Below are positions 2,957-4,950 of a stretch of 64,000 nt of DNA, piece after piece (the stretch's first letter is position 1; each line of letters opens with the position of its first letter). This DNA comes from Escherichia coli. Its GTDB lineage: Bacteria; Pseudomonadota; Gammaproteobacteria; Enterobacterales; Enterobacteriaceae. Location: assembly GCF_003019035.1 (NCBI RefSeq), contig NZ_CP027447.1; one strand, written 5' to 3'. The translations under genes and the position numbers were made by a program. The notes under the pieces were generated by a model, which saw nothing but the letters and a program-made list of their open reading frames with translations, was not told the DNA's origin and made no database searches.

Positions 2957-3502
2957 GGGTAATCCTTTGTAAGACAGAGAGTAAAATAAGTTACACACGT
3001 CGTATTTATGGCCGTTCATAACGGCACAGGTTTAATATCACAGGAGTGTCTTTATCTGACCGTAATGTTGCAATTGATCTATTTTCAAAATGTCTTTCGG
3101 GAAATGATTGTTTAAAGTATGTTGTTAAATTCTCATGTTAATTCAGTGTGTTATGTCAACTAATGTCATGAATGTTAAATTTTTAAAATTAACTTGATTT
3201 GGTGTATTGAGGTATTTGTGATCTACTTCTAATTTGCATTTTAGTGATATGGGTTTAGCCATGAGTAAATGCATTTCATAAAATTTAAGTCGAATTTCAC
3301 TGCAATTCATCTCTGCTTAATGTAAAAATAATGTTGAAAATAACAAATGGTTAATGATTCATGCGAATTATGACCTTAGTTAGCTCTTTTGATTTTTCGT
3401 AAAAAAGAGAGGTACATGAAGGTGCTACCAGTATGAGTAACGTTAATCAAAGGTTTTATTACCTCTGGCAATAACGCAGGCCATTTTCGCGACTGGGTGG
3501 AT

Positions 3503-3925
3503 TTAATCAGTATAATCCTCATACAATAGTTCACGATTAACTGAACCGTTAACGGGGATTTGGTGTTGAAATTTAGAAATGGCGGAGTCAATTAATGAAG
3601 ACAATATCGAAAAAATGACAGTGTCAGAATTAATTTCAATTAATCCTTCTCGTTGTTGACCAAAAAAGATATTTATCTTGATTTCATTTGTACTACGGCA
3701 ATCAATATGTAGTAATTTTTGATCGCTGAGATTTTCTGTTTCATAAATGTTTTTGGCGATAGTCGGATGTATTGATGCCAGACATCTGCTCAGATAAGCC
3801 AGATCCTTTAGGGAACACCCCGCTGAGTAGAGGATGTCAGAGAATTTTTGTGTGTCAACTGTTGTCTCTGAAGCGTATGTTGCATTGACAGGAAGGGTGT
3901 TGAAAGAGATTTGAGATGGGATCAT
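3503..3925 (-). CDS. Hypothetical protein (140 aa), AT-rich accessory ORF; possibly a decayed paralog of the upstream 314-aa ORF
   Basis: Track ORF; N-terminus MIPSQIS resembles MSPDNIS of the neighbouring ORF; an overlapping out-of-frame 71-aa ORF (3376..3591) may be a frameshifted continuation. No recognisable family. Confidence 0.4.
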   Translation of the reverse strand: MIPSQISFNTLPVNATYASETTVDTQKFSDILYSAGCSLKDLAYLSRCLASIHPTIAKNIYETENLSDQKLLHIDCRSTNEIKINIFFGQQREGLIEINSDTVIFSILSSLIDSAISKFQHQIPVNGSVNRELLYEDYTD

Positions 3926-4005
3926 TATTTAAATCTTTCCGTGAGTAATAAAAATTAATCCCCGGGCATTGTTTAGCAATATTTGCCACAGGGAATATAT
4001 AAAAA

Positions 4006-4950
4006 TTAAAGTATTTGATTGGCATCGGTTAACTGATCAATAACCAGTGCCAGATTGGTAAACATTTTGAAAAAGCGATACTGGCTCGGAATATCTCTTT
4101 CAAAGACGAAACATTCAATGTCATTGTTTGAAAAATAAAGGACTAGTGTTGCTGATTCGTCAGGAAAAATATGGAAATATATCTGGTTACCAGAAGGAGG
4201 ATAGTCCAGAAGAAGGGTATCTTTGCCCGTCACATACCTGTTGTGGTCGTGGATGCTACGCTCACACTTCATCAGAGGTGTCATGATACTCATGTATTCA
4301 TCTGATGTTAATATATTAAAATCACCATCCATTTTAAAGAAACGATAAAGTAACAGTACATCCTCTTGCGTAACCGGTTCGTTTGTTTTTAGAGGGAAAT
4401 AAGTGGGAACCAGAAGATGAGGTTCTAATCTATTTTGTTGAGCGCTATAACTAAATTTGAACATAAATTCCGGATCGCTCATCAATTGAGCGACATAATT
4501 ATGCCTGGCTTCAAAAATTTTAACTTTTATCAGGTTAAATAAGTCTGTTTCGTCATCCTGTATTAAAAGACATTGGCCATAGCAGCCAGGCTTTTTTTCA
4601 TTATAAGCAGAAACGGTTATTCTGTCAGGAGTGTCAACGTTATATCCAAAAGCCAGATAGTGACCTTCCTCATCGAGATTTGTTTCCAGGTTATTTAAAT
4701 TCATCACATGAAGTGTTTGCAATGCTGATTCAATGAGCTGTTGACTCTCTGAGGTAAATGTTTCGCGCTGCGTTGTATAAAGTGTATCGATTCCAACGAC
4801 TATCCGATATGGGTCAAGGATGGCGGCAATCATCTTTATTACCTGCACAGTCATGGGTGATGTCATTGATTCTTTATCTGTTTTTAGAGGATCATTAGAT
4901 GGCCAACCTGAGAAGCGATTGACAGCAGAACTGATATTATCAGGACTCAT
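4006..4950 (-). CDS. Hypothetical protein (314 aa), acidic, no obvious TM segments, Ser/Thr/Pro-rich N-terminus, internal YRFFKM repeat
   Basis: Long clean ORF in a visibly AT-rich segment; no similarity recognised to any family I can name. Confidence 0.55.
   Translation of the reverse strand: MSPDNISSAVNRFSGWPSNDPLKTDKESMTSPMTVQVIKMIAAILDPYRIVVGIDTLYTTQRETFTSESQQLIESALQTLHVMNLNNLETNLDEEGHYLAFGYNVDTPDRITVSAYNEKKPGCYGQCLLIQDDETDLFNLIKVKIFEARHNYVAQLMSDPEFMFKFSYSAQQNRLEPHLLVPTYFPLKTNEPVTQEDVLLLYRFFKMDGDFNILTSDEYMSIMTPLMKCERSIHDHNRYVTGKDTLLLDYPPSGNQIYFHIFPDESATLVLYFSNNDIECFVFERDIPSQYRFFKMFTNLALVIDQLTDANQIL

Follow-up and report, generated by a model that had tools for sequence, protein, structure and literature searches.

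What are the two open reading frames (ORFs) that stand between cydA and the glutamate mutase operon in some strains of Escherichia coli, and do they have any part in that operon? The question arises from a window of 64,000 nucleotides of E. coli contig NZ_CP027447.1 (RefSeq assembly GCF_003019035.1), which is the whole stretch of DNA analysed here. Two co-oriented ORFs, of 314 amino acids (aa; MSPDNIS...) and 140 aa (MIPSQIS...), are present on its minus strand, in an AT-rich segment between the cydA regulatory DNA and glmS. The initial annotation had described them in this way, and the GC profile and the RefSeq neighbours agree with that description. We consider it fairly probable that they form a small AT-rich accessory islet of foreign origin in the variable slot between sucD and cydA, with two selected yet dispensable Escherichia-specific proteins. 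The parts of the module are as follows.

3503-3925, minus strand: 140-aa gene (orphan gene B), WP_000613114.1, 'hypothetical protein' (ORF list and RefSeq)
3926-4005, minus strand: 80-bp spacer between the two orphan genes
4006-4950, minus strand: 314-aa gene (orphan gene A), WP_096986758.1, 'hypothetical protein' (ORF list and RefSeq)
4951-5115, minus strand: module-specific upstream region of the 314-aa gene, with its presumed promoter and 5' leader
3376-3591, minus strand: overlapping out-of-frame 71-aa ORF (ORF list), judged accidental and no gene

The GC content is 0.30-0.42 over positions ~2900-5700, compared with ~0.52 on either side (glmS/glmL and cydA). The two orphan ORFs have a GC content of 0.36-0.38, and their GC content at third codon positions (GC3) of 0.33-0.35 is far below the 0.52-0.66 of the neighbours glmS, glmL, cydA and cydB, whose overall GC content is 0.50-0.54. 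The segment is compositionally foreign. The longest open frame in it has 330 codons and the maximum among 500 composition-matched shuffles was 173, which places the ORF length far above chance for such AT-rich DNA.

Coding status and features of the two proteins

The 314-aa gene has an orthologue in Escherichia albertii (locus L002, protein P0004) with exactly 314 codons, no insertion or deletion (indel) and 65% amino acid identity. Between the two copies there are 213 differences in 942 nucleotides (23%) and 111 in 314 residues. In a neutral simulation, the same number and spectrum of substitutions were placed at random in 5000 runs. None of the 5000 simulated frames remained open, with a mean of 7.7 stop codons, and the 111 observed amino acid changes compare with 137 ± 5 simulated ones, about 5 standard deviations (SD) fewer. 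The pairwise ratio of nonsynonymous to synonymous substitution rates (dN/dS) of this gene is 0.40-0.55, and in both whole orphan genes dN/dS is below 1 in every pair compared. For comparison, dN/dS is 0.006 in cydA and 0.03-0.08 in glmS, and dN between E. coli and E. albertii is 0.22 in the 314-aa gene versus 0.0017 in cydA, a more than 100-fold difference. The orphan pair evolves at the protein level far faster than its neighbours. Because the frame is open and indel-free at 23% divergence, and given the simulations and dN/dS values, both ORFs count as real genes under purifying selection, which acts weakly on the 314-aa protein and strongly on the core of its 140-aa neighbour.

In the 140-aa protein, this core (residues 36-117) is nearly invariant, and two haplotypes differ in the first 35 residues and in the C-terminal tail (118-133). 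dN/dS is 0.09-0.31 for the whole gene, 0.04 for the core (codons 36-117) and 3.0, on few sites, for the C-terminal tail (codons 118-140). The alleles are mosaics of the two haplotypes at both ends around the invariant core. These mosaic ends, together with the dN/dS of the tail, suggest either recombination or tails under diversifying selection. Among the alleles, the form with YEDYTD at its end dominates (cluster of n=939 member sequences), and the exact 140-aa allele is found on at least 1000 contigs.

The TAA stop codon of the 140-aa gene is conserved across all alleles. The 71-aa frame that overlaps the end of the gene is open in this strain alone, owing to a 1-nt difference in an A-run just past this TAA, and is broken in the O157, O145 and L003/L004 alleles. 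It follows that the 71-aa ORF is spurious and open by accident. It had been called consistent with a frameshift-decayed copy, which it is not: a strain-specific 1-bp indel past a conserved stop opens the frame. Database proteins of 160-198 aa come from rare variants in which a frameshift makes the 140-aa gene run on into the 71-aa frame.

The sequence ahead of the genes is also conserved. A GAGG Shine-Dalgarno sequence sits 8 nt ahead of the ATG of the 314-aa gene, and the 100 bp upstream of this start (4951-5050) are 88% identical to E. albertii, which is above most of the coding sequence. Across E. coli, a cryptic clade and E. albertii, the conservation of this leader (AAAAATGAGCGATTTTTGCAAGTT...TATAGCCGAGTACGCTCAGCG...) exceeds that of the gene body. 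It matched neither a canonical sigma-70 promoter nor an Rfam family, and may serve as a regulatory site or form a structured leader. A sigma-54 promoter was considered here and dropped, because sequence inspection found the GG-N10-GC spacing unsatisfied. Promoter and terminator consensus sites in the region are no more numerous than in shuffles. In an alignment of E. coli lineages and E. albertii, the sequence before the start codon of the 140-aa gene (GGAAAG...ATG) is conserved as well, and a pattern scan of the 80-bp spacer (3926-4005) found no terminator-like site. The two genes are probably one operon read away from cydA, since they are co-oriented, are separated by only 80 bp and share a conserved upstream leader.

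Both proteins are acidic, mildly hydrophilic and soluble, with an isoelectric point (pI) of 4.65 for the 314-aa protein and 4.8 for the 140-aa protein. Inspection of the two translations found no hydrophobic N-terminal signal sequence in either. The 314-aa protein has the invariant motifs GQCL (125-128) and KCERSxHD (228-235), and its invariant Cys, His and Asp residues are C127, H150, C229, H234, D235 and H260.

The absence of a recognised enzyme or regulator family, stated in the initial annotation, was confirmed in every collection searched. NCBIfam and Pfam gave no match for the 314-aa, 140-aa or 71-aa products, and in PADLOC none of the three ORFs had a family at E<=1. PHROGs gave only weak matches (E=0.07-0.32) to families with no function assigned, and sequence searches of PDB with single sequences and profiles gave nothing below E=0.48. 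AlphaFold2 models built from shallow alignments reached a mean pLDDT (predicted local distance difference test) of only 42.8 and 45.2; at this low confidence, the secondary structure of both proteins is predicted to be alpha/beta. Foldseek searches of PDB gave best E-values no lower than 0.09 and TM-scores below 0.3, and these matches were disregarded. A word-indexed search of 5.8 billion clusters returned Escherichia and Shigella proteins only, and an exhaustive HMMER scan with profiles, run over 1.84 billion representatives, gave 14 matches, each a fragment of the family used as query. Among the genomes of GTDB, scanned one per species, four loci came up, namely E. albertii, Escherichia sp. 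MOD1-EC7003 and two contigs of metagenome-assembled genomes (MAGs). The MAG contigs, labelled Collinsella sp. (L010) and Citrobacter sp. (L011), carry the pair at 99-100% amino acid identity to E. coli and are likely mis-binned E. coli contigs. No homologue of either ORF was found by tblastn in phage collections. Three matches occurred in PLSDB, all labelled non-mobilizable: NZ_CP141089.1 (4.94 Mb), NZ_CP134663.1 (4.90 Mb) and CP088669.1 (0.73 Mb). With lengths of 0.73-4.9 Mb, these records are mislabelled chromosomal sequence, and there is no true plasmid copy. On these searches, both proteins belong to Escherichia-restricted orphan families. No paper's main text mentions ECs0765-0767, Z0897-Z0899 or either WP accession.

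A distant paralogy of the two proteins had been proposed from their similar starts and a common short patch. The I-K-x-x-I-F patch is literally present in both ORFs, and the N-termini share the pattern M-x-P-x-x-I-S (MSPDNIS and MIPSQIS), which E. albertii keeps as MNPDNIS and MKPSQLS. Three identities in positions 2-7 arose in 214 of 50000 shuffles, in a post hoc test picked after the pattern had been seen. Pairwise alignment of the whole sequences did not bear the proposal out. BLASTP of the 314-aa against the 140-aa protein gave E=1.8, hhalign on whole proteins and halves gave probabilities of 0.4-1.0%, and shuffle-calibrated Smith-Waterman alignment gave p=0.30-0.86 apart from one marginal value (p=0.015) in 7 tests. 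The internal YRFFKM repeat described for the 314-aa protein does exist, at residues 202 and 291, and a hexamer repeated exactly turned up in 76 of 50000 shuffles. The two copies differ at three synonymous sites, and in E. albertii they are degenerate (FHFLQM and YRYFAM), so the repeat is a protein-level motif and not a recent DNA duplication. A search for internal repeats in the 314-aa protein (hhalign on halves and Smith-Waterman shuffles) was non-significant. In the low-confidence AlphaFold2 models, the order alpha-alpha-beta-beta-beta-alpha occurs in the 140-aa protein and in each half of the 314-aa protein. This common alpha-alpha-beta3-alpha order may be a hint of a shared domain, short of evidence for it.

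Distribution, decay and expression of the pair

Of 5426 complete E. coli genomes, 1135 carry the pair, in every case at this single site, and ~79% lack it. It occurs in O157:H7 and O145, and the module is also found in E. albertii. The region upstream of cydA has three forms in E. coli. The first, in ~1138 genomes, carries both ORFs. In the second, ST131-like form, homology starts at window position 5116 (~90% identity) and a gene of the tetratricopeptide repeat (TPR) type follows mngB. In the third, K-12-like form, homology starts at position 5381 (~80% identity) and the neighbour is mngB. Neither ORF leaves a trace in K-12 or ST131 by tblastn.

The sucD-cydA slot is a hotspot with lineage-specific cargo. 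It holds mngRAB in K-12 (L009), mngAB and a 397-aa TPR-repeat protein with a signal peptide in ST131 (L014), a 258-aa outer-membrane-like protein in E. albertii (L002/L012), and the fumD-glm methylaspartate cluster with the orphan pair in the lineage of the window (L001). The other cargo (mngRAB, the TPR gene, glm/fumD and the 258-aa gene) is like the pair in occupying the same hotspot and varying between lineages. It has recognisable domains or functions, whereas the orphan pair has none. The pair is the piece nearest to cydA and the sole slot cargo common to E. coli and E. albertii. In E. albertii, cydA is followed by the 314-aa gene, what remains of the 140-aa gene, the 258-aa outer-membrane-like gene and sucD, in this order.

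The pair is dispensable, and its loss or breakage has occurred repeatedly. The E. albertii type strain has a frameshift in its 314-aa gene, Shigella dysenteriae has an inactivated copy, and insertion sequences (IS) interrupt the pair in a few strains. Both genes are interrupted in Escherichia sp. MOD1-EC7003 by 130-nt repeats that resemble the enterobacterial repetitive intergenic consensus (ERIC). These ERIC-like repeats (L013 8345-8474, 8751-8787 and 9084-9213) translate to a recurring ...CVRSPQSLTYVSSWGF... peptide, and one of them agrees with the ERIC core at all but 1 position. In O145 RM9467 the 140-aa gene is frameshifted, and so is glmL, suggesting that the whole island is decaying in this lineage. 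RefSeq flags frameshifts on both genes of this locus (O145 RM9467-C1, L008), in glmL at 1-688 and in the 140-aa gene at 1685-2106.

Transcription was taken from a published RNA-seq study of strain EDL933 in 11 conditions, given as reads per kilobase per million mapped reads (RPKM; PMC4048457 Table S4). The annotation of EDL933 places four ORFs (Z0896-Z0899) in the interval from glmS (Z0895) to cydA (Z0900), with the following values.

Z0896: RPKM 0 in all 11 conditions
Z0897: RPKM 2 in LB, 0 otherwise
Z0898: RPKM 0-5
Z0899: RPKM 0 except 11 and 12 in two conditions
cydA (Z0900): RPKM 2-212, and at least 13 in 10 of the 11 conditions

The pair is thus almost untranscribed in one strain of enterohaemorrhagic E. 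coli (EHEC) across 11 published conditions. A shotgun proteome table of O157:H7 passes from Z0894 to Z0900 and lists none of Z0895-Z0899 (PMC3210124), and the supplements of a Ribo-seq paper have no entry for the ECs0765-0767/Z0897-Z0899 loci (PMC4765031).

Explanations for the pair

On the reading preferred here, the segment ~3503-5115 would be a horizontally acquired AT-rich islet with a two-gene unit, silenced by xenogeneic silencing of the H-NS type and expressed only under some niche condition. In enterobacteria, silencing of AT-rich foreign DNA by H-NS is established, and H-NS reportedly acts at the cydAB promoter; it is from this known behaviour and this action that silencing of the islet is inferred. 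The two products would act together as an accessory pair without a housekeeping role, and would probably bind each other or another macromolecule rather than serve as a metabolic enzyme. The pair resembles the AT-rich, H-NS-silenced orphan islets of enterobacteria in many respects: AT-richness, patchy occurrence among strains at a fixed chromosomal hotspot, lack of homologues outside the genus, rapidly evolving proteins, almost no transcription in culture and pseudogenes that arise often. Unlike the usual orphans, its ORFs are unusually long (314 and 140 codons), and its open frames have been conserved since before the split of E. coli and E. albertii.

Several points weigh against this reading. 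E. albertii keeps the 314-aa gene with the 140-aa gene decayed, and a 314-aa gene without an intact partner argues against an obligate partnership. The AlphaFold2 models are of low confidence and without a significant structural match. H-NS silencing of the islet is proposed by analogy, and a pattern scan upstream of the 314-aa gene found no canonical sigma-70 promoter. The two genes are only presumed to be transcribed together, and their products only presumed to interact physically. The expression data come from one strain in 11 conditions, and Z0896-Z0899 were not matched individually to the two ORFs, although any mapping gives an RPKM of at most 12. Finally, a dN/dS of ~0.45 with repeated pseudogenisation is also compatible with a slow loss of function.

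This last point leads to an alternative that we regard as unlikely, namely that the ORFs are functionless decaying remnants of an old insertion that have so far stayed unbroken in most E. coli. Near-zero transcription in the 11 conditions, the lack of detection in the proteome study, the absence of the pair from ~79% of E. coli genomes and a dN/dS of 0.4-0.55, relaxed by comparison with cydA (0.006) and glmS (0.03-0.08), all point this way. So do the independent inactivations in the E. albertii type strain, MOD1-EC7003, O145, Shigella dysenteriae and the strains with IS insertions. They are opposed by the 314-codon frame without indel or stop at 23% divergence, which stayed open in 0 of 5000 simulations, by amino acid changes in the 314-aa gene that lie ~5 SD below the neutral expectation, by the dN/dS of 0.04 in the 140-aa core, by the conserved leader and Shine-Dalgarno sequence upstream of the 314-aa gene and by intact copies in thousands. 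The initial annotation had itself allowed for non-expressed pseudogene debris; near-zero transcription (PMC4048457) agrees with the first part of that description, and purifying selection in the sequence contradicts the second. A defence-related pair, whether an anti-phage, toxin-antitoxin or toxin-immunity system, had been suggested too and is highly improbable. A two-gene, AT-rich, patchy accessory module in a variable slot would suit it, and the invariant C127, H150, C229, H234, D235 and H260 could form an active site. PADLOC lent it no support (0 families at E<=1), and PHROGs gave weak matches only (E 0.07 or worse). The neighbourhood has no defence genes, integrase or other mobility genes, and the pair always occupies a single chromosomal site, with no phage or true plasmid copies. 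The survival of the 314-aa gene without a partner in E. albertii is unexpected for a toxin, and near-silent transcription is atypical for constitutive defence or toxin-antitoxin loci. An equally slight probability is given to the idea that the pair regulates, or is an accessory of, the glutamate mutase/methylaspartate (glm) operon. It stands directly upstream of glmS, in the same orientation, both in E. coli and in Escherichia sp. MOD1-EC7003, and the initial annotation had raised both a functional tie and the possibility that the two always travel together. E. albertii is the counterexample, as it has the 314-aa gene beside cydA and no glm genes. Conversely, glm/fumD clusters have been reported from Klebsiella, Citrobacter, Enterobacter, Salmonella, Yersinia and Morganella (PMC4682846), but neither ORF has a homologue outside Escherichia. 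The contrast in base composition is sharp (GC3 0.33-0.35 in the orphan ORFs versus 0.52-0.59 in the glm genes), a 545-bp spacer keeps the 140-aa gene and glmS apart, and family searches found no DNA-binding or other known domain in either protein. The pair is independent of the adjacent operon.

A further alternative, decidedly unlikely, is that both proteins are substrates of type III secretion through the enterocyte effacement locus (LEE) or E. coli type III secretion system 2 (ETT2), either as two effectors or as an effector with a small acidic partner. A composition count finds 12-13 Ser, Thr, Asn, Gln or Pro residues among the first 25, so that the N-termini are polar and low in charge and leucine; in the 140-aa protein just 2 of these 25 residues are charged. 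Both proteins begin with M-x-P-[DS]-[NQ]-[IL]-S, which is kept in E. albertii, and the first 25-30 residues are unstructured in the low-confidence AlphaFold2 models. A GC content of 36-38% and a dN/dS of ~0.45 would be effector-like, low GC and such a dN/dS being typical of nle-type effector genes. The N-termini presumably resemble those of NleC, NleD and NleH, a likeness that serves as a lead only. The low GC and the polar, Ser/Thr/Asn/Pro-rich, predicted-disordered N-termini are common to the pair and to nle effectors with class I chaperones of the CesT-SycE type, and occurrence in EHEC O157:H7 and E. albertii is common to the pair and nle effectors; the module is in O145 as well. As in effector-chaperone pairs of type III secretion, a small acidic protein stands beside a larger one, and the 140-aa protein, with a pI of 4.8, has chaperone-like size and charge (range ~130-160 aa, acidic). 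The class I chaperone fold is alpha-beta3-alpha-beta2-alpha, which the low-confidence prediction for the 140-aa protein, alpha-alpha-beta3-alpha, does not match. The 140-aa protein had no sequence match to chaperone families in Pfam or PDB, and Foldseek with its low-confidence model gave nothing at E<0.1. More generally, in searches of Pfam, NCBIfam and PDB neither protein resembled any effector, chaperone family or solved structure by sequence or by profile, and polar N-termini are unspecific as evidence. The pair is chromosomal and adjoins no type III secretion locus or prophage, and it is found in isolates from healthy carriage, wastewater, birds and dogs, judged by source only. A bolder version deserves still less credence. 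It holds that the pair would be new type III substrates (of ETT2 or LEE) or, equally, some other exported or competitor-directed factor, built from one new alpha-alpha-beta3-alpha domain in three copies (two in the 314-aa protein and one in the 140-aa protein), with M-x-P-x-x-I-S as an export signal.

As an accessory islet, the pair is an ordinary kind of feature, that is, lineage-specific genes annotated as hypothetical in more than 1000 genomes. The main value of the analysis is negative, since the link to glm and glutamate fermentation, the paralogy and the 71-aa ORF are all removed. The pair is also a clean example of genus-restricted orphan genes that are under selection, yet almost silent in culture. 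It adjoins one of the best-studied regulatory regions of E. coli (cydAB), in a slot that varies between phylogroups. Should the proteins be expressed in the gut or on relief from H-NS, they could be lineage-specific niche factors of EHEC O157:H7 and E. albertii.

Flanking features and the cydA regulatory region

The genome of E. coli SCU-301 is 100% identical to window positions 3000-5750. Its RefSeq annotation gives glmL, glmS, the 140-aa hypothetical protein and the 314-aa hypothetical protein in this order on the minus strand, and then, on the plus strand, cydA, cydB, cydX and ybgE, followed by the tol-pal genes. The features that flank the module in the window are the following.

2507-2956, minus strand: glmS (RefSeq annotation of the 100% identical genome)
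2957-3502, no strand assigned: AT-rich non-coding spacer from the 140-aa gene to glmS, ~30% GC
5116-5753, plus strand: cydA regulatory region, given as context outside the module, which it bounds on the cydA side
5754-7325, plus strand: cydA (RefSeq annotation of the 100% identical genome)

The glm promoter region is presumed to lie in the spacer 2957-3502. Scanning 2800-5900 against Rfam at E<=1 gave no match, including none to a cobalamin (B12) riboswitch ahead of glmS.

The cydA regulatory region (5116-5753) exists in three deeply diverged E. coli haplotypes, as found by comparison with L009 7086-7502, L014 5001-5685 and L002 9076-9500. The K-12-type match covers only the proximal 373 bp at ~80-82% identity, and the ST131-type match covers 638 bp at ~90%. 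The coding sequence of cydA is 98.9% identical in all three regulatory haplotypes. From 5401 to 5800, the haplotype of the window is 90-100% identical to E. albertii, above cydA itself (94.5%). The well-studied cydAB promoter of K-12 may therefore be the divergent allele.

A strong anomaly of strand composition occurs further along the window, at 10600-11800, with an AT skew of up to 0.78 and a GC skew of ~0.23. By gene order it lies in tolA, and it is probably the repetitive central domain, rich in Ala, Lys and Glu.

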